Shown: piece after piece, positions 1-37,606 of the stretch
Layout: every line of letters starts with the position of its first letter
How positions within the stretch are numbered: position 1 is the first letter of the stretch
Origin: a virus
Direction: 5' to 3' (one strand)
DNA length: 37,606 nt
Virus record (IMG/VR): IMGVR_UViG_3300045988_011380
Made by a program: the position numbers and the translations under genes
The notes under the pieces: generated by a model
What the model saw: the letters and a program-made list of their open reading frames with translations, nothing else
What the model was told of the DNA's origin: nothing
Database searches by the model: none

Positions 1-55
1 GCGATGTACTCAAGGCGAAGATTGTACCGGCGCTTCTTTTCCTGTTTTTCGTTCA
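1..55. repeat. terminal direct repeat, copy 1 (exact match to 37552..37606); assembly-overlap signature of a circular or circularly permuted molecule
   Basis: Read directly: bases 1-55 (gcgatgtactcaagg...ttttcgttca) are identical to the last 55 bases of the window. Confidence 0.95.
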
Positions 56-724
56 CGATGTCAGCTCCTTCTCATATTTGCAGTTTTTCATATCGCAGCT
101 CTTTTTATCTGCGCACACGCTGCATCCGTGCTTCCGGGTGAACTCAGCGACATCCCGCTTTACTCTAGGTCTTCCTCGCTGACATCCGCAGGAGGTTACG
201 CCGCCGGAGCGGAGATTAAAGCCGGGGAGCGTCTTCTCCCTACCGCATTCGCAGACGCAATCGAACATTCCATGTCCGGCTTCCCGTGTTGCAACGATGT
301 TCTTCCGCAGAACTGTTAGCATACCAAACCGCTGCCCCGTAAGGTCGATCAGCCGCCCCTTGCCGCCTTTCTGCCCGCATCCGCACGTCTTCTTGTTCCC
401 CGTGGTGAGCTTGCGGCGTTCAACGGAAACCTCGTTCCCGCACGCGCACCGGCAGAGCCACAGCCCGGATTCTTCCTGCCGGATGACCGTCAGTTGCCCG
501 AACACTTCCCCGGTTAAGTCCCTGCCCCGTTTCCCGGAGTTCTCCCGCGCACAACCGCAGGACTTAACCGTGTTCCCGCGCAGCTGATAGCCGGGGAGGA
601 CTTTTTCCGTGCCGCAATCGCAGCGGCAGAGCCAGTACGAGCCGTTTCTTCCGGTGTGATCGAATCGGAGAACCGTTAGCCGGTTGAACCGCTGCCCGGT
701 TAGATCAATTCGTTGTTTCATCAC
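53..724 (-). CDS. triple zinc-ribbon repeat protein, function unknown
   Basis: 223-aa ORF made of three tandem ~60-aa units. Each has LTGxxFxxLTV ... (W/F)xCxCxCG ... (S/T)CGC, a four-Cys zinc-ribbon-like pattern. The stop at 53 lies inside the terminal overlap. Confidence 0.7.
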   Translation of the reverse strand: MMKQRIDLTGQRFNRLTVLRFDHTGRNGSYWLCRCDCGTEKVLPGYQLRGNTVKSCGCARENSGKRGRDLTGEVFGQLTVIRQEESGLWLCRCACGNEVSVERRKLTTGNKKTCGCGQKGGKGRLIDLTGQRFGMLTVLRKNIVATREAGHGMFDCVCECGREKTLPGFNLRSGGVTSCGCQRGRPRVKRDVAEFTRKHGCSVCADKKSCDMKNCKYEKELTS

Positions 725-1152
725 AGCCTCCTCTTTGCGTAGAGCGCCATCAATAGAGCCTCGGCACAGCCGTCATGCTCCTTGCGGCAGCCCGGCGGGA
801 TGAGATTCACGCCGGGGAACAGCCGCTTGCAGACCTCGATGGACGTGTTCTTGTCGGAGGTGACGGAAAATTCCTTCTTCCACTTCTGCGGGCGGACAAG
901 CTCATACGGAATGCAGTAGGCTTCGAGCATCCCTTGCAGCCAGCCGAAATTTTCACCGAAGTGGAACATCGAAACGCTGCCGTTCTTCGGCATGGCGCCG
1001 ACGTGCTCTAAGCAGCACACCGCCTTTTCCCCGCGCATATCGGACAGGACGCAGCGGTATGTGTCGCGGTCATACCGGAACGTCTGGACATTCTCCCCGC
1101 TCAGAATGGCAAGGCCGCCGTTCTTGCCGGGGTCTATGCCGATATAGATCAT
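721..1152 (-). CDS. RuvC-like Holliday junction resolvase
   Basis: 143-aa ORF starting MIYIGIDPGKNGG (RuvC/RNase-H-fold Asp motif). Its start overlaps the MTase stop (ATGA). It sits in the recombination module. Confidence 0.8.
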   Translation of the reverse strand: MIYIGIDPGKNGGLAILSGENVQTFRYDRDTYRCVLSDMRGEKAVCCLEHVGAMPKNGSVSMFHFGENFGWLQGMLEAYCIPYELVRPQKWKKEFSVTSDKNTSIEVCKRLFPGVNLIPPGCRKEHDGCAEALLMALYAKRRL

Positions 1153-2774
1153 GCTTTCTCGCCTCCGAAATGATGCTTTGTGACGGCAATAGCGAACGGC
1201 TCAATCTCCGACGCCCAAATCGCCGTTCCCTTGCCGTGGATGCTTTCCCAACACAGCGGAAACCCTCCGATGCCATCAAACAGGCTGCCGAGCGTCGCGC
1301 CCTCTGGCAAATACGCCGCCATCCGCTCGAACATCCAGCGCCAGAATGGGAGCGCGATGGAGTTTCCGAGCGCTTTGTATTTCGGCGCGTCTGCTTCCTT
1401 GTGTACGCGGCCTTTCTCGTCCGTCCAGTCGCCGATGCAGACCCATCCGTCCGGGAAGCCTTGAAGCCTTGTGCATTCCAACGGAGTAAGCCGACGAACG
1501 ACCATGCGCTCCATAACGTGCTGTTGTGTGCCGCCGCTCGCATGAGCTTTCAACGTGCCGAATTGGTCTATGTAAGCGTTTTTCTCGTCGTCGATGCCGA
1601 TAACAAGGTCGGTGGCATCTTTGGAATCTCTCTGTTTGCAGGAAGAGCTAATTTCATTCTCTTTGTAATCGCCGAAAGACTGCATGGAGAATGTCAGCGG
1701 GATCTGGTTTCCGCCGGTCCCCATTCTCGCCTGCAACGACATGGACACATCTCTACTCTCGCGTATCACGTCATTCGCGTGCGTCATATCGAAGATATAC
1801 GTCTGCTGCTTCATCCCCGGCTCTGCCGCCAACGCTCCTGCAACGCCGTGAAGATCGCGCACCTCGTCGCGCTGATTCTGGGCGAACGCCATGACGGCGG
1901 GACGATCAATCGTATTCAACGTATAGCTCACGTCCTCCGTCCAGCCCTTGCCATTGCATCCGGCGGTATCGGCACGGTCTATTCCGTTGCCCTGTAAGCA
2001 GAAGATCGTTTGGTCGTTTTCGGTTCTAAGCGTTCCGCTCTTCTCCGTCTGAACTAACGCGCCTTTTCCTCCGCCGTCACATCCCCCCCGGATGCGGACT
2101 GCATAAGCAGAACAGCTTTCAGCATCTCCGGCAATTTCTTCCCGCGCCGTTCCGCCCTCCGTAAGATCCCGGCGCACGCCTTCGGCGTAAGGTTGTACTT
2201 CGGGTCGGGATTCTCTTCCAGAATCTGCGACAACTTCGTGAGCACCAGAATCTTCGGCTCCTCCGAAACGTTCAAAGAGGATGTCCCCTGCGGTGAATCC
2301 GTTAAAATCGACCACCATGCTGATACGCCGTCTGCGCTGCGGCACTCCCCAGTATTGGGCATCGTGCGTCCGCCAAGCGACGCTCCATCCGTCGCCGACG
2401 ATCCCTCCGGCTTTTGTCCACTTCTGCTTGTTTGGCAATCGAGGAAGAGAAAAGGTTGGCTCTGTGATGCGAACAGCTTCTTCCAGCACGGCGGCGAAAT
2501 CCTCTCCTCCGTTGGAACTATAAGCGCCGGGGACGTTCTCCCATGCCATGTACCTCGGTCGAACAAGTTCATTTGTCCGTCCAATACTTCGTTCATGCTC
2601 TCTCATCTCCTTGACGATTCGTATCTGTTCCATGTACAAGCCGGAACGAGCGCCGGCAAGACCCGCACGTTTCCCCGCGATGCTCAAGTCCTGGCACGGG
2701 CTCCCGCCGGTGATGCACCAGACGGGAGAGATCTCCGCGCCGTTGATCTTTGTGATGTCTCCGACGTGCTTCAT
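1149..2774 (-). CDS. DNA (cytosine-5) methyltransferase, circularly permuted (motif order IV-VI-VIII-TRD-IX-X-I-II)
   Basis: Motifs in order: GGSPCQDLS (IV), ENVPG (VI), QRRRR (VIII), RRLTPLECTRLQGFPDGW (IX), GNSIALPF (X), then LFDGIGGFP (I) and WASEIEP (II) in the last ~55 aa. AAAGGAG lies 8 nt upstream of the ATG at 2774. Confidence 0.85.
   Translation of the reverse strand: MKHVGDITKINGAEISPVWCITGGSPCQDLSIAGKRAGLAGARSGLYMEQIRIVKEMREHERSIGRTNELVRPRYMAWENVPGAYSSNGGEDFAAVLEEAVRITEPTFSLPRLPNKQKWTKAGGIVGDGWSVAWRTHDAQYWGVPQRRRRISMVVDFNGFTAGDILFERFGGAEDSGAHEVVADSGRESRPEVQPYAEGVRRDLTEGGTAREEIAGDAESCSAYAVRIRGGCDGGGKGALVQTEKSGTLRTENDQTIFCLQGNGIDRADTAGCNGKGWTEDVSYTLNTIDRPAVMAFAQNQRDEVRDLHGVAGALAAEPGMKQQTYIFDMTHANDVIRESRDVSMSLQARMGTGGNQIPLTFSMQSFGDYKENEISSSCKQRDSKDATDLVIGIDDEKNAYIDQFGTLKAHASGGTQQHVMERMVVRRLTPLECTRLQGFPDGWVCIGDWTDEKGRVHKEADAPKYKALGNSIALPFWRWMFERMAAYLPEGATLGSLFDGIGGFPLCWESIHGKGTAIWASEIEPFAIAVTKHHFGGEKA
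2057..2268 (-). other. segment of the MTase gene whose native coding frame is +1 relative to the annotated ORF (3' part of alt-frame ORF 2054..2596)
   Basis: The alternate frame reads EEPKILVLTKLSQILEENPDPKYNLTPKACAGILRRAERRGKKLP, the element that normally follows motif VIII. Third-position G+C is 47/62 in the alternate frame versus 27/62 in the annotated frame (hand count). The segment is bounded by a T3 run (2266-2268) and a G7 run (2083-2089). Confidence 0.6.
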
Positions 2775-2778
2775 GCCG

Positions 2779-3531
2779 TCAACTCCTTTCGCCGATTTCT
2801 ACGCCCAGCATTTTGCCGAGCCGTTCACGGTCATCGCCTTTTGGCTGCTGCAAAGCAAGGAGCCGTTCAAGGCGGTCTAAGTCGTCGCCATGCGGCATAC
2901 GGGCAGGAGTGGGTTTCTTCGGCGCTTCCGGCTCGTCCTTGAGCGGGAAAACACCCTGCCAGCCTCGCTGGATGCTCTGGTTGAGTATGGCGATCTTCTT
3001 ATCGTCATCACCGGGGGCGAGCTTTTCCAGTTCGGAAATCGTCAAGGCAAGGGCGCGGTCGGTAAGCGGTTTGCGCATCTTTTTCCGCATTTCCGCAAAA
3101 TCGTTCAAAGCCACATCCAGCGCGGACGCGCCTTTATGTTTTTCCTCGGTAGAGGGAAAACATCTGTCTTTGTCTTTATCCTTGTCCTTGTCTTTATCCT
3201 TGTCCTTGTCCTTGTCATTGGCTTTTTTGGGTTTCTCACAAAAGGCTTGGGTTTTTTGGGTTTCTGAATTAACCGACGGCTTTTTCGGTCTGCCGCCTTT
3301 TTTTCCGTTTTCGGACTGCCGCGCACAGAAATCGTTATAGTTGCCCTTATCCCTATCTATCTGCCACTTCATCTGCGGAAAAACAAAACGCTCGTTCCCG
3401 CGGAGGTCGGGGACTTCGCCCGTGCTGCTGTAAGTAAGCAGCGCCGTGAAAAGCCGCCCGCGCTCCGCGTCGTTGAGTTGTTCAATCGCAGTAAGGTAGC
3501 TGTGATAGGCATTGAAGCTCTCTAATGCCAT
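2779..3531 (-). CDS. putative replisome organizer / DnaD-like replication protein with a (DK)n linker
   Basis: 250-aa ORF. The N-terminus (YHSYLTAIEQLNDAERGRLFTALLTY) and the C-terminus (KPLTDRAL...ILNQSIQRGWQGVF) resemble phage replisome-organizer/DnaD-like proteins (recognition from memory). It lies upstream of the SSB gene. Confidence 0.55.
   Translation of the reverse strand: MALESFNAYHSYLTAIEQLNDAERGRLFTALLTYSSTGEVPDLRGNERFVFPQMKWQIDRDKGNYNDFCARQSENGKKGGRPKKPSVNSETQKTQAFCEKPKKANDKDKDKDKDKDKDKDKDRCFPSTEEKHKGASALDVALNDFAEMRKKMRKPLTDRALALTISELEKLAPGDDDKKIAILNQSIQRGWQGVFPLKDEPEAPKKPTPARMPHGDDLDRLERLLALQQPKGDDRERLGKMLGVEIGERS
3166..3216. repeat. 17-codon GAC/GAT-AAG/AAA hexamer array containing an exact tandem 18-mer x2 (3172-3189, 3190-3207)
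   Basis: Read directly: gtctttatccttgtcctt occurs twice in tandem within (gtc ctt/ttt)n. It encodes DKDKDKDKDKDKDKDKD. Confidence 0.9.
3223..3265. repeat. exact 14-nt direct repeat ttttttgggtttct (3223-3236 and 3252-3265)
   Basis: Read directly; 29-nt pitch; adjacent to the hexamer array and to T-runs at 3281-3285 and 3298-3304. Confidence 0.85.
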
Positions 3532-3543
3532 TGTGCGCCTCCG

Positions 3544-3924
3544 TTAAAACGGGAGCTGTCCGTCATCCTCGACATCGGCGAGCTGTGCGCCGGTGGCCGC
3601 GTCCTTGGCCTTTCCCTTGCCGCCGCAGAACCAGACGTTATCCGTCATAACCTCTGCCGCCGTGCGGTTCGAGCCGTCCTTGGCGGTGTACTTCTGCATC
3701 TGCAAACGTCCGGCAACAAGAATCATATCGCCCTTGCTGAAATAGCTTTCGATGAACGCCGCCGTCGCCTTAAATGCAACGCAGTTGATGAAGTCTGTTT
3801 CTTCCCGGTTGAAGTCACGGTCAACGGCAAGCGTGAAACGGGCTACCTTGTCGTTTTTCGTTGTGAGCCGTATCTCCGGCTCCTTCGTGAGCCTCCCTTG
3901 CAAGAGGATTCTGTTCATAGCCAT
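3544..3924 (-). CDS. ssb: single-stranded DNA-binding protein
   Basis: 126-aa ORF with an OB-fold SSB pattern (NRILLQGRLTKEPEIR...FTLAV) and an acidic C-terminal tip DDGQLPF. AAAGGAA RBS lies 8 nt upstream. Confidence 0.9.
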   Translation of the reverse strand: MAMNRILLQGRLTKEPEIRLTTKNDKVARFTLAVDRDFNREETDFINCVAFKATAAFIESYFSKGDMILVAGRLQMQKYTAKDGSNRTAAEVMTDNVWFCGGKGKAKDAATGAQLADVEDDGQLPF

Positions 3925-4247
3925 TGGTTATATTCCTTTCTGTAAATGAGATTCTTCTCGTCCCATCCGGGATACAGGGCTTTGAGATAGTCCCGGCAGT
4001 AGTTCCCGATCTCCTGCCGCATCGTTGTTGTGCCGTTGTCGAAGGCATCATGGCAGAGGCGGCAGAGGGTGAGGATGTTTTCCTCGATACCCAATCCCCC
4101 GCGGGAACGGGGGATGTAATGGGCTTCCGGGAATGCGTAAATCGACTTGCAGTAGACGCAGCAGTGGTTGTCGCGCTCCCATACGCGCTTCTTCACCGCC
4201 GGGGAGATGGCGCACGCCTTAGCGCGTTTGCTTGAGATTCTTTTCAC
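3915..4247 (-). CDS. HNH endonuclease
   Basis: Motif: CCVYCKS...EAHYIPRSRGGLGIEENILTLCRLCHDAFDNG. I prefer the GTG at 4247, preceded by GGGAGGG, over the TTG at 4268 used in the ORF track. Confidence 0.8.
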   Translation of the reverse strand: MKRISSKRAKACAISPAVKKRVWERDNHCCVYCKSIYAFPEAHYIPRSRGGLGIEENILTLCRLCHDAFDNGTTTMRQEIGNYCRDYLKALYPGWDEKNLIYRKEYNQWL

Positions 4248-4752
4248 TCTTTCCCTCCCATTCGCCAAGCAGGGCGGCGAGCTTGTCCGGCGGCATGGTC
4301 TCGATGCCTACGGCTTTCGCGTCCTGAATCAAATTGTCTATAAGGCGGCTCATCTGCCGCGTATCAAAGGTGGACGAGCCGTAATAGAGGATCACGTTCA
4401 CGCAGCCGGGGAGCTTGGATATATCGTCCTCCGTCTGCCAGCCCAGCCCGCGGGATTCCCATATTTTCCGGAGCTGCGGCGCGGCTTCCGCTTTGATGCA
4501 CACGATTTCGGAGTTGCCCCCGACGTCGCGGACGGCATTGCGGTATACCTCCGTTTTCGACACGCCGGTAGCCGCCGCGAGCTTATCAATCAGAATCCAT
4601 GCATACGCATTGGAATCCAGACTTCGGAGGGACTTTTTTGCCTTGATCTCGTATTCCCCCGGCTGAAATGCATAAGCAAAATGCCGTGCGTCCACGTCGT
4701 AGGCTTTGAGCTTGAGATAGCCGTCCTCCCATACGGCGCTGTCGATCTTCAC
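4219..4752 (-). CDS. hypothetical protein of the recombination/replication module
   Basis: 177-aa ORF with a GTG start coupled to the upstream stop (GTGA). The sequence is protein-like; no motif recognised. Confidence 0.6.
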   Translation of the reverse strand: MKIDSAVWEDGYLKLKAYDVDARHFAYAFQPGEYEIKAKKSLRSLDSNAYAWILIDKLAAATGVSKTEVYRNAVRDVGGNSEIVCIKAEAAPQLRKIWESRGLGWQTEDDISKLPGCVNVILYYGSSTFDTRQMSRLIDNLIQDAKAVGIETMPPDKLAALLGEWEGKSEKNLKQTR

Positions 4753-9690: not shown

Positions 9691-10251
9691 GTGTCAGCAC
9701 TCACAGACTTGCAGCCTTACTTAGATGAGTATCCAGCCAAAATTCGCAAAGCGAAAAATGCCAGCGGCTTCACCCTGCAAGAATTGTCAGACCTGTCCGG
9801 CGTCCCATACAACAACATCTGTGACACGAATGCAGGGCGGGTCAAGCACCCGCTCCTTTTTTATGCCGCTGCCACTTGTAAGGTATTGAATCTATCGCTG
9901 AATGAGCTTGTCGGTCTGGATGAACAGCCGGACACACAGCATGTCCATGATCTGGAATTGGAGAACGTGCGGTTATCCGGCGAAGTAAAGCATCTGCAAG
10001 AAATGAACGCAGGGCTGAGAAAGCAGGGGGAAACCCACACAAGGACAATTTATATGCTCATAGGCGTATGCAGTATTCTTTTGTGCGCCGTTGTATGGTA
10101 CGTCATATTTGACATCCAGGTAGAGACCGCCGGTATTTTCCGCTCGGCTGGGACAAGCATTTTTGCGGGCGTCCTCGCCCTGATACTGAACGCCTCCGTC
10201 ACAACCATCATTTACGCCTTCAAAAGCATTTACAAGGGGAAAAAGAAATGA
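9691..10251 (+). CDS. membrane-anchored XRE-type HTH protein
   Basis: HTH: GFTLQELSDLSGVPYNNICDTNAGRVKHP. Then a coiled segment and two hydrophobic helices (IYMLIGVCSILLCAVVWYVIF; IFAGVLALILNASVTTIIYAF). GTG start 11 nt after GGAG. Its stop overlaps the integrase ATG (ATGA). Confidence 0.65.
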   Translation: MSALTDLQPYLDEYPAKIRKAKNASGFTLQELSDLSGVPYNNICDTNAGRVKHPLLFYAAATCKVLNLSLNELVGLDEQPDTQHVHDLELENVRLSGEVKHLQEMNAGLRKQGETHTRTIYMLIGVCSILLCAVVWYVIFDIQVETAGIFRSAGTSIFAGVLALILNASVTTIIYAFKSIYKGKKK

Positions 10252-11540
10252 GAGTTGCACTTTATGTCCGCGTCTCCACGGAAGAACAAGCCGTTCACGG
10301 CCTTTCCGTCGATGACCAGAAAGAAAGCCTGAAAAAATGGGCAGAGGAAAACAAGCATAAGGTCGTTGATTATTACGTCGATGCCGGGGTAAGCGGCAGG
10401 AAAAGCGTGTCAAAGCGGCCTGAATTGCAGCGGCTTCTATCCGATGTGGAAGCGGGGGAAATCGATCTCGTAGCGTTCACAAAATTAGACCGTTGGTTCC
10501 GCAACATCGGCGAGTTTTACAAAGCGCAGGAAGTGCTCGACGCGCACGGCGTTGTATGGCAAGCGACATACGAGGATTATGAGACCGCCACCGCCGCCGG
10601 ACGGTTAAAGGTCAACATTATGCTGTCCGTCGCGCAGGACGAGGCAGACAGAACGTCAGAGCGCGTTAAACGAATCATGCAGCACAAGCGGGAGCTTGGT
10701 CTCTGCCCGGCGGGCAAGACGCCCATCGGGTTAAAGGCCGTCGAGAGCCGCCTTTGCATCGACGAAGAAACGGCGCACGTTGCGAGGCGAATGTTTGAAG
10801 ATTACATCGCAACGGGAAGCGTTAACCACGTCAAGAAGATGCTCGTTTCCGAATTTGGAATAATGCGAGGAAATCATCACATCAAGAACGCGCTGGGCAA
10901 TGAACGATACATCGGAAAGAATAATGGGATTCAGGTCTGCGACGCGCTGATACCGCCGGAGGATTTTGCCCTTGTACAGCGGATGCTGACGGCGAGAAGC
11001 GTTCGCAACAACGGATCGCGGCACACATGGCTTTTCTCCGGCCTTGTCTGGTGCGCCGAATGCGGCCATCGTCTTGTGACGCATTCAACACGTCAACGGG
11101 GGACAGATTACTTCTATTACCGCTGCAAAAACTATGAACTGGGCATCTGCCGCCACAAAAAGAGAATCAACGAGGCGGCACTTGAAAAATATCTGCTTGC
11201 CAAGCTGCCAATCGAGGTACAGGCGCATAATGCAAAGCTCAAGGCGGGAAAAATAAAACCGACGGTTGACACGGCGGCGATCAAACGGAAAATGGACAAG
11301 CTGACAGACCTTTACCTTGCTGATCTAATCAACCGCGAGAAATACGAAATTGAATATACAGCATTAAAGGAAAAACTGAACGTACCGCCAGAGCCAAAGC
11401 CCATAGACGAAGCGCTTATCATGTCATTGCTTGACGCCTACGACAAGCTGCCGCCAAGCGGGAAAAAGGAAGCATGGAATCGCTTCATCCGCCGAATTGT
11501 CATTGCAAACAACGGCGAAATATTTTTTGATCTCGTTTAG
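10248..11540 (+). CDS. int: large serine recombinase (phage integrase)
   Basis: N-terminus MRVALYVRVSTEEQ...GLSVDDQ (resolvase catalytic Ser domain), then a recombinase domain and a zinc ribbon (CAECGHRL...YYRCKNY..C). 430 aa. Confidence 0.92.
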   Translation: MRVALYVRVSTEEQAVHGLSVDDQKESLKKWAEENKHKVVDYYVDAGVSGRKSVSKRPELQRLLSDVEAGEIDLVAFTKLDRWFRNIGEFYKAQEVLDAHGVVWQATYEDYETATAAGRLKVNIMLSVAQDEADRTSERVKRIMQHKRELGLCPAGKTPIGLKAVESRLCIDEETAHVARRMFEDYIATGSVNHVKKMLVSEFGIMRGNHHIKNALGNERYIGKNNGIQVCDALIPPEDFALVQRMLTARSVRNNGSRHTWLFSGLVWCAECGHRLVTHSTRQRGTDYFYYRCKNYELGICRHKKRINEAALEKYLLAKLPIEVQAHNAKLKAGKIKPTVDTAAIKRKMDKLTDLYLADLINREKYEIEYTALKEKLNVPPEPKPIDEALIMSLLDAYDKLPPSGKKEAWNRFIRRIVIANNGEIFFDLV

Positions 11541-37455: not shown

Positions 37456-37551
37456 GCCGCGTCCTCCCATACTGGGCGTTTTTTCTTCCACTTGCGCCAG
37501 CGGATAAAGCGCCACTGGGGCGGCTCGCTGTCCAGCCACTTGTTGAAATGC

Positions 37552-37606
37552 GCGATGTACTCAAGGCGAAGATTGTACCGGCGCTTCTTTTCCTGTTTTT
37601 CGTTCA
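37552..37606. repeat. terminal direct repeat, copy 2 (identical to 1..55)
   Basis: Read directly. Confidence 0.95.

Follow-up and report, generated by a model that had tools for sequence, protein, structure and literature searches.

The stretch of viral DNA analysed here, the whole of which is called the window, is the 37,606-nucleotide (nt) IMG/VR record IMGVR_UViG_3300045988_011380, and at positions 1149–2774 of its minus strand lies a 541-amino-acid (aa) open reading frame (ORF) for a cytosine-5 DNA methyltransferase (MTase; C5-MTase). C5-MTases are a textbook case of fixed motif order. In comparison with their canonical linear order from motif I to motif X, the window protein differs in topology, not in fold. 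It is a natural permutant of Type B, with the N-terminus placed between motifs II and III, and belongs to a large family, this layout having earlier been made only in the laboratory. We regard it as quite likely that the ORF encodes a complete and probably active Type B enzyme, and that the gene is dual-coding, with a conserved 180-aa ORF nested in its +1 frame.

Motif order and integrity of the gene

The ORF starts with MKHVGDITK according to the ORF list, and its catalytic and cofactor motifs were all present and invariant, or nearly so, in an alignment of 74 homologues (Table 1). Pfam PF00145 matched the ORF with an E-value of 2.4e-32 and 113 bits (cut-off 22) in four stretches, the N-terminus beginning at profile position 46, and TIGR00675 gave 101.9 bits (cut-off 100.65). 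When PDB sequences were searched with phmmer, residues 15–55 of M.HhaI aligned with residues 496–538 of the ORF and residues 57–112 with residues 3–58, which locates the break in the canonical chain to a single point, give or take one or two residues. Putting the last 52 aa before the first 172 aa resulted in a single continuous PF00145 stretch covering profile positions 4–128, with 102 bits versus 73.7 bits without the tail.

The ends of the ORF correspond to Type B, as four residues precede GDI, 16 residues follow motif II, and motif X is joined to motif I via PEGAT. The Type H order (IX-X-I...VIII) was not found, the ORF opening with motifs III and IV, and neither is the window gene split into alpha and beta genes in the manner of M.AquI, since motifs VIII and IX share one open frame. 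Taken together, the profile match, the alignment to M.HhaI and the re-joining in silico support a circular permutation of a C5-MTase in which the chain opens between motifs II and III. The initial annotation had proposed this permutation from the motifs and had anticipated that the C-terminus would align to the start of the family model and the N-terminus to the part behind motif II, as was found. Some of its details need correction. Its motif list opened with motif IV and is right from there on, but the N-terminal GDIT is itself motif III; the interval from motif VIII to motif IX, given as ~330 aa, is actually ~276 aa; and the third-position G+C in 1201–1260, counted as 15/20, is 14/19 complete codons.

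A truncated gene call had been considered improbable, and the gene borders bear this out: a Shine-Dalgarno sequence stands at the expected place (Table 1), the stop codon of the upstream gene is at 2779–2781, and the 3′-end overlaps the downstream Holliday-junction resolvase gene by ATGA at 1149–1152. Mis-assembly had been named as one finding that would overturn the permutation. The window is a metagenomic scaffold, and one might suspect a chimeric join, or a tandem duplication that had collapsed, at 1150–1300 or 2700–2800. The probability of such an artefact is negligible, as more than 100 independent contigs of several sources and the isolated Faecalibacterium phage FP_Toutatis show these junctions too, and the sequence around either one is that of an ordinary transition from gene to gene, with a Shine-Dalgarno sequence and ATGA coupling.

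Table 1. Location of the motifs, nested ORF and signals of the permuted C5-MTase gene in the window. TRD, target-recognition region; AdoMet, S-adenosylmethionine; GC3, G+C at third codon positions.
Feature	Position	Strand	Remarks
Main ORF, permuted C5 cytosine DNA MTase	1149..2774	(-)	order III-IV-VI-VIII-linker-TRD-IX-X-I-II
Shine-Dalgarno sequence AAAGGAG	2783..2789	(-)	8 nt 5′ of the main ATG at 2772-2774; from sequence
Motif III, GDIT, aa 5-8	2751..2762	(-)	at the new N-terminus; aligns with M.HhaI GDIT 59-62
Motif IV, PCQ, aa 26-28, catalytic Cys27	2691..2699	(-)	nearly invariant in the 74-homologue alignment
Motif VI, ENV, aa 79-81	2532..2540	(-)	invariant in the 74-homologue alignment
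Motif VIII, QRRRR, aa 146-150	2325..2339	(-)	invariant in the 74-homologue alignment
Linker, main-frame aa ~171-235, Gly/Ala/Glu/Arg-rich	2070..2264	(-)	from codon-position diversity, GC3 and frame identity
Variable/target-recognition region, aa 236-423	1506..2069	(-)	modular among homologues (alignment); low model confidence
Motif IX, RRLTP at aa 427 (RRLTPLECTRLQGFPDGW)	1443..1496	(-)	profile and PDB sequence alignment
Motif X, GNS at aa 470 (GNSIALPF...), and C-terminal helix of the canonical fold	1308..1367	(-)	
PEGAT linker	1293..1307	(-)	connects the former C-terminus (motif X helix) with the former N-terminus (motif I strand)
Motif I, FDGIGG, aa 499-504 (LGSLFDGIGGFP, FxGxG AdoMet loop)	1257..1292	(-)	F499, G501 and G504 invariant
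Motif II, WASEIEP, with SEIE at aa 522-525	1197..1217	(-)	E523 corresponds to M.HhaI E40; S522, E523 and I524 invariant
Nested ORF, 180 aa (MNEVLDGQMNLFD...LSQILEENPDPKYNLTPKACAGILRRAERRGKKLP...)	2054..2596	(-)	+1 frame inside the main ORF; homologue of the beta N-terminal module of split relatives
AAGGAG	2607..2612	(-)	10 nt between AAGGAG and the nested ATG (2594-2596); inside conserved main-frame VKEMREH codons
QMNLFD, nested-ORF residues 8-13	2558..2575	(-)	family N-terminal motif Q-x-[SNT]-[LWM]-[FSC]-D; Q8 invariant
Conserved core of the nested ORF, residues 121-165 (LSQILE..KYxL[ST]xKACxGILRRAxRRGKxLP)	2102..2236	(-)	invariant columns
G7 homopolymer tract	2083..2089	(-)	just before the nested-ORF stop

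Recurrence in homologues and selection on the tail

Homologues with the same motif order, which it had been suggested to look for, were abundant. The closest set comprised the 120 best database proteins (68–100% identical; from JGI, ENA, Logan and NCBI), and the tail with motifs I and II was retained in 120/120 of these, with endings similar to ...WASEIEPFAIAVTKHHFGG and in most of them a start of M[KN]HxGDIT. The same tail is present in FP_Toutatis, and two recorded contigs encode the identical 541-aa protein.

Using the last 119 residues (IX-X-I-II) as query against 1.84 billion representative proteins, 733 clusters (50% identity, E≤1e-30) were matched. Among the 150 listed, all carried the whole query as a single stretch, nearly always C-terminally; with a canonical enzyme, no more than half of the query could be matched. 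Clearly full-length Type B proteins numbered 23 among the best 150 of the 733 clusters. The window together with the clusters matching its tail indicates that the topology broken between motifs II and III is used naturally, and at large scale, in gut phages.

When the window and seven relatives were aligned by codon, the pairwise diversity by codon position was 0.085/0.086/0.303 for the I/II tail and 0.062/0.010/0.221 for the first 59 codons. This third-position-dominated diversity at both ends indicates purifying selection on both in the MTase frame. A decaying remnant, in which a 5′-truncated MTase gene would have been followed by the first 50 codons of a neighbouring one, left open by chance in G+C-rich DNA, might be suggested by the frameshifts seen in many relatives and by the tandem or fused MTase arrangements that exist in the family (protein P0244). 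This explanation is highly improbable in view of the third-position pattern, the intact state of all motifs in a single frame, the number of clusters matched by the tail, and the full activity of an artificial enzyme with equivalent topology (PMC5944983).

One Type B homologue (P0267, 747 aa) has a ~370-aa insertion with intein hallmarks, which splits motif VI (ENV|CFAGETLV...VVAHN|CGAFSS).

Predicted structure

AlphaFold2 run on a diverse alignment modelled residues 1–170 and 426–538 mostly with a predicted local distance difference test (pLDDT) score of 80–95. The tail was predicted as strand 495–497, helix 504–513, strand 518–521 and helix 526–536, i.e. the first strand-helix-strand-helix unit of the canonical fold. 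The top PDB matches by Foldseek were M.HhaI and M.HaeIII, with E-values down to 4e-7 over ~170 columns. According to this model the AdoMet unit of strand 1, helix A, strand 2 and helix B, with motifs I and II, would have left the N-terminus and would now stand behind the motif X helix, the protein starting in the loop before motif III. From its complete set of motifs, the 541-aa protein is probably enzymatically active.

A nested ORF in the +1 frame

The 180-aa ORF, located wholly inside the larger ORF in another frame, overlaps motifs VI–VIII and the region following them; motif IX lies in the main frame and not in the nested ORF. Its homologues included 326 called proteins of ~150–190 aa without a Pfam domain, and tblastn with the nested ORF returned matches in 119 phage records. 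The nested ORF would be translated from a Shine-Dalgarno sequence and ATG codon of its own (Table 1).

In main-frame aa 181–216 the first codon position of the main frame, equivalent to the third of the +1 frame, was the most diverse; the values by main-frame codon position for aa 181–225 were 0.136/0.081/0.057. Across the linker, GC3 was 0.75 in the +1 frame versus 0.38 in the main frame. A gapless core of 31 codons (KY-to-AL) was compared between frames in eight lineages, including gut phages (Firmicutes), Mycobacterium phage Dove, coliphage P1 dmt, Pseudomonas phage D14E and a split relative, and the +1 frame had the highest mean amino-acid identity, 64%, as against 33% for the MTase frame and 31% for the third. 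The frame-specific diversity, GC3 and identity indicate that the nested ORF is not due to chance, and that the main-frame ~65 aa (~171–235) form an unconstrained linker across DNA selected in the other frame. The initial annotation had taken the entire stretch between motifs VIII and IX as variable or target-recognition region, which holds for aa 236–423 but not for these ~65 aa, where the sequence is unselected in the MTase frame and the conserved core of the nested ORF is situated.

Two other explanations of the +1 similarity were rejected. It is not a shadow of main-frame conservation, since in the 31-codon core identity in the +1 frame is about twice that in either other frame, and diversity and GC3 switch frame there. 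A programmed frameshift from motif VIII into the nested frame is contradicted by the conserved +1 segment, which overlaps or precedes the main-frame ILFE element in Dove, locus L005 and P1, and likewise by the nested ORF having its own start and, in locus L016, its own gene. Homology of the nested core LSQILE..KYxLT to the post-motif-VIII segment of Escherichia coli Dcm was also considered; hhalign chose Dcm 309–337, but with an E-value of 0.08 and a probability below 1%.

Between the main-frame VVDFNGFTAGDILFER element and the +1 LSQILE..KY core, the window has ~22 extra codons (2175–2321, minus strand) in comparison with Dove and L005, so that the main-frame and +1 constraints barely overlap in the window lineage. 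A tandem duplication as the source of these codons was unsupported, the nucleotide similarity of the putative copies being below the shuffled expectation.

An N-terminal motif of the pattern Q-[VML]-[SNT]-[LWM]-[FSC]-D was found in 123/123 nested-ORF sequences with an intact N-terminus, with Q-V-S-L-F-D as the family consensus and QMNLFD, QLDLF and QLALF as the variants in the window, Dove and locus L024, respectively. The bacterial beta-clamp-binding pentapeptide has the consensus QL(S/D)LF (PMC9690074), and we hypothesise that through its QxxLF motif the nested protein may attach the enzyme to the sliding clamp of the host. By analogy with M.EcoHK31I, whose beta chain is likewise nested, we infer that the 180-aa product would act in trans with the 541-aa chain as an enzyme subunit. 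If the nested ORF is a real subunit, it would be a second example of the M.EcoHK31I principle, and might link phage DNA methylation to the replisome.

In P1 dmt (L018, NC_005856.1; dmt at 1861–4125 of the locus) the conserved +1 segment is located at ~2400–2660 and reads LSQVLEQTSIPQRYFLSSKACAGILRRGEKRRKSLPPLLQMAL. In both P1 dmt and L019 (Pseudomonas phage vB_PaeS-D14E) the +1 segment is more conserved than the annotated C5-MTase frame, and P1 dmt may hide an unannotated nested gene. A wider proposal, which we consider possible and on the whole doubtful, is that a broad phage C5-MTase clade (phages of gut Clostridia, Mycobacterium and Pseudomonas, and P1 dmt) hides a +1 trans subunit tethering the MTase to the sliding clamp at the replication fork, and that single-base slips re-partition the enzyme without killing it. 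If this were true, the clamp-tethered subunit would be a bacterial-virus analogue of DNMT1-PCNA, and the tolerance of single-base slips (e.g. G7/G8) would explain the move of motifs I and II to the C-terminus.

Split relatives and the homopolymer tract

The canonical-order relatives L016, L024 and L027 (Faecalibacterium sp. An122, isolate genome) are split enzymes. Their alpha gene carries motifs I–VIII, and the beta gene directly behind it, with a coupled start, carries an N-terminal module followed by TRD, IX and X; this module is homologous to the nested ORF of the window. The alpha gene of Dove contains the module as a nested frame, motifs IX–X being carried by the short gp108. In L015 the module is in frame with TRD-IX-X-I-II, which gives an alpha′ gene (III–VIII) and an overlapping beta′ gene.

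The window and L015 differ at a G tract. With seven G residues, in the window, L003, L004 and L005, the TRD-IX-X-I-II half continues the III–VIII frame, and with eight, in L015, it continues the nested frame. The tract has been kept in L004 and L005 even though these are only ~50–60% identical to the window in protein. Comparison of these sequences suggests that the length of the tract (G7 versus G8) sets which frame is joined by the TRD-IX-X-I-II half, and that switching would take place at the tract.

It could accordingly be asked whether the enzyme is a heterodimer of alpha′ (III–VIII) and beta′ (nested module-TRD-IX-X-I-II), encoded by genes overlapping by ~420 nt, with the 541-aa ORF of the window as a one-G slippage variant. 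The G7 form would then be a phase-variable state, a neutral fusion or a homopolymer sequencing error, and motifs I and II would still be relocated, to the end of the second subunit. L015 has G8 and exactly this layout, beta′-type ORFs (start M..GQxxLFD, end in I/II) numbered at least 17 among the best 150 representative clusters, in L016, L024 and L027 the nested module and the TRD are parts of one chain, and the G tract is retained in lineages only ~50% identical in protein. We nevertheless judge the heterodimer unlikely, since the fused layout was the commonest among the sampled relatives, both by locus (7 of the 10 viral loci) and by junction (71 fused-junction proteins and 24 stand-alone nested ORFs versus 4 G-tract beta′ forms), in a sample biased towards the query. 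The fused layout was also found in L007–L009, which lack the tract, indicating that the fused form is stable, and the two contigs encoding an identical 541-aa protein likewise speak for a single chain.

Frame variation and evidence against a complete dual-coding enzyme

Several points weigh against a complete, active and dual-coding Type B gene. The proteins, and the 5-methylcytosine that the enzyme would produce, are predicted from the sequence. Profile searches with the nested ORF gave no match in Pfam, PHROG or PDB; its likeness to the E. coli Dcm segment is non-significant and a resemblance only; and the clamp-binding motif is a five-residue pattern that partly overlaps conserved main-frame codons. 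The TRD and linker were predicted at low confidence from the diverse alignment, and AlphaFold2 on the 74 close homologues gave a mean pLDDT of 33 and was discarded. Foldseek covered only ~170 columns and cannot align a permuted order, so it supports the fold and does not place the tail. With regard to the structure prediction and comparison to M.HhaI that had been called for, the analysis gave a model of the catalytic part, a predicted secondary structure of the tail and M.HhaI among the best Foldseek matches, with the TRD unmodelled. Within the family, a frame change separates motif VI from motif VIII in FP_Toutatis (L001) and P0378, and L004, L005 and L006 have a TAGA insertion of 4 nt immediately behind the codon for the catalytic Cys. 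With this many frame layouts, part of the family may be decaying or need recoding.

In FP_Toutatis (L001 2290–3701) and P0378, one ORF comprises motifs III-IV-VI followed by the nested-ORF core, and motif VIII is in another frame. The TRD-IX-X-I-II half is on the second (motif VIII) frame in FP_Toutatis and on the first frame in P0378, and these loci may be split enzymes or pseudogenes. FP_Toutatis has been annotated with two methyltransferase coding sequences; gene callers and annotators break up or mislabel these genes.

The TAGA insertion (L004 ~3880–3895, L005/L006 ~3892–3907) reads TCACCTTGT-TAGA-CAGGATCTATC, with 24 nt identical in two lineages ~50–60% identical in protein. It creates an in-frame TAG, and motifs III and the N-terminal part of IV fall in a different frame. 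Among the gene calls of the 120 closest homologues, approximately 28 seem to have a comparable shift or truncation at the N-terminus (starts ..VVHLVRQDLS or MEQIRIVKEMRE). The insertion could represent inactivation, recoding (a +1 shift to PC-R-QDLS) or something else.

Origin of the permutation

The homologue P0244 is a complete 540-aa ORF (L021 1637–3259) with the motif order TRD-IX-X-I-II-III-...-VIII and a nested +1 ORF of its own. At its X-to-I junction it has PFWRWMFQRMAEYLPENAALGSLFDGIGGFP, which is homologous to the window junction and shows the same PEGAT junction sequence, and it reads ...VTKTRFPGMKHLGDITK through the site at which the window protein has its two termini. Canonical relatives also have a Met at the break point, as in FPSMAHKGDI of L016. 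The shared junction and the Met at the break point fit one tandem fusion followed by truncations. Most likely, as judged from these sequences, the permutation would have originated by an in-frame tandem X-to-I fusion and subsequent different truncations (permutation-by-duplication), with an internal start codon ready-made. The canonical split, Type-H-like and Type B members, with a common X-to-I junction, provide a natural series for the permutation-by-duplication model.

Relation to known C5-MTases

Ten circular-permutation topologies of M.MpeI and M.SssI have been constructed, among which Class B, with the N-terminus between motifs II and III, was the most active (Slaska-Kiss et al. 2018, PMC5944983). 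In the same study, a REBASE search revealed 27 permuted C5-MTases of natural origin, each with its break in the variable region and of the M.BssHII type, and the authors were puzzled that the II/III break is not used in nature and suggested a hidden cost in AdoMet binding. Laboratory-evolved M.HaeIII permutants that start between motifs II and IV are cited therein. The restriction of the natural permutants in that study to breaks in the variable region agrees with the initial annotation, to which a break between motifs II and III was not a known layout. Literature searches turned up no report of Type B permutants in nature, and none of a nested ORF within the family.

Like the window enzyme, the laboratory-made cp62M.MpeI and cp58M.SssI (PMC5944983) begin between motifs II and III and have the original termini linked behind motif X; the window enzyme in contrast is natural, belongs to a large phage family, and has a long modular TRD and a nested second ORF. 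The Type H enzymes M.BssHII, M.Alw26I, M2.Eco31I, M.Esp3I and M2.BsaI (PMC5944983) are also natural permutants with motif X followed by I, but break in the variable region and leave both domains intact, whereas in the window protein the break cuts through the half of the Rossmann fold that binds AdoMet. Within the window's own family, P0244 is Type-H-like and has the X-to-I junction in common with the window protein.

The classical two-subunit enzyme M.AquI, split in the variable region, resembles the non-permuted relatives of the window (L016, L024, L027 and Dove), which are split after motif VIII; the window ORF itself is a single chain with motifs I and II relocated. In M.EcoHK31I the beta chain is encoded wholly inside the alpha gene in another frame, and both chains are needed (PMC2836561). 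A conserved part is thus nested in an alternative frame while the larger ORF reads through, as in the window, but the M.EcoHK31I beta chain carries motif IX and the nested ORF of the window is the pre-TRD segment of split relatives; the resemblance of the two is one of arrangement.

Phage P1 Dmt and the MTase of Pseudomonas phage vB_PaeS-D14E belong to the same subfamily as the window enzyme ('EIEPFP' in motif II) and have the same +1 segment (LSQVLE..YFLSxKACAGIxRR...LP) 3′ of motif VIII. Both are single-chain enzymes with the canonical I–X order, P1 Dmt being fused to a Dam domain, whereas the window enzyme is permuted. Plant DRM2, chains of which were among the weak PDB sequence matches, also has a permuted C5-MTase catalytic domain. 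In DRM2 the break is between motifs V and VI (VI–X, then I–V), and the enzyme is eukaryotic and unrelated in origin.

Genome context

The neighbours of the permuted gene encode a DUF6291 replication-type protein and the resolvase, with SSB, HNH and Sak genes nearby, and no restriction enzyme partner was seen adjoining the MTase gene. The gene appears to be an orphan MTase of a replication and recombination module, and its role is most likely anti-restriction, i.e. it would methylate the phage DNA against host restriction.

The ends of the window share an overlap of ~55 nt (1–60 versus 37547–37606; GCGATGTACTCAAGGCGAAG...), and the window is thus a complete, circularly closed genome of ~37.55 kb, with a G+C content of 55.7%. 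Megablast of window positions 1–4500 against phage genomes gave no match, and relatives were found in genomes of Oscillospiraceae, 'Clostridiales' and Faecalibacterium. The genome encodes a serine integrase (10248–11540), terminase, portal and tape-measure protein, a ParB-fused amino-methyltransferase and a PAPS-reductase-like protein, and is that of a complete temperate siphovirus of Oscillospiraceae/Faecalibacterium-type hosts.

The amino-methyltransferase is the second methyltransferase of the genome (31702–32964, minus strand), is located beside the terminase genes and consists of a ParB-like N-terminal domain and the amino-methyltransferase part (phrog_498, E=4.5e-151). A hexanucleotide tandem repeat of 9.3 copies at 3165–3220, read as NDKDKDKDKDKDKDKDKDKD, encodes (KD)n in the middle of the DUF6291 protein just 5′ of the MTase gene. 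Directly 3′ of the resolvase gene, positions 53–724 (minus strand) encode a 223-aa protein with three LTGQRFxxLTV...W.C.C.CG... repeats rich in Cys pairs, which matched phrog_374, annotated as HNH endonuclease, in three stretches.

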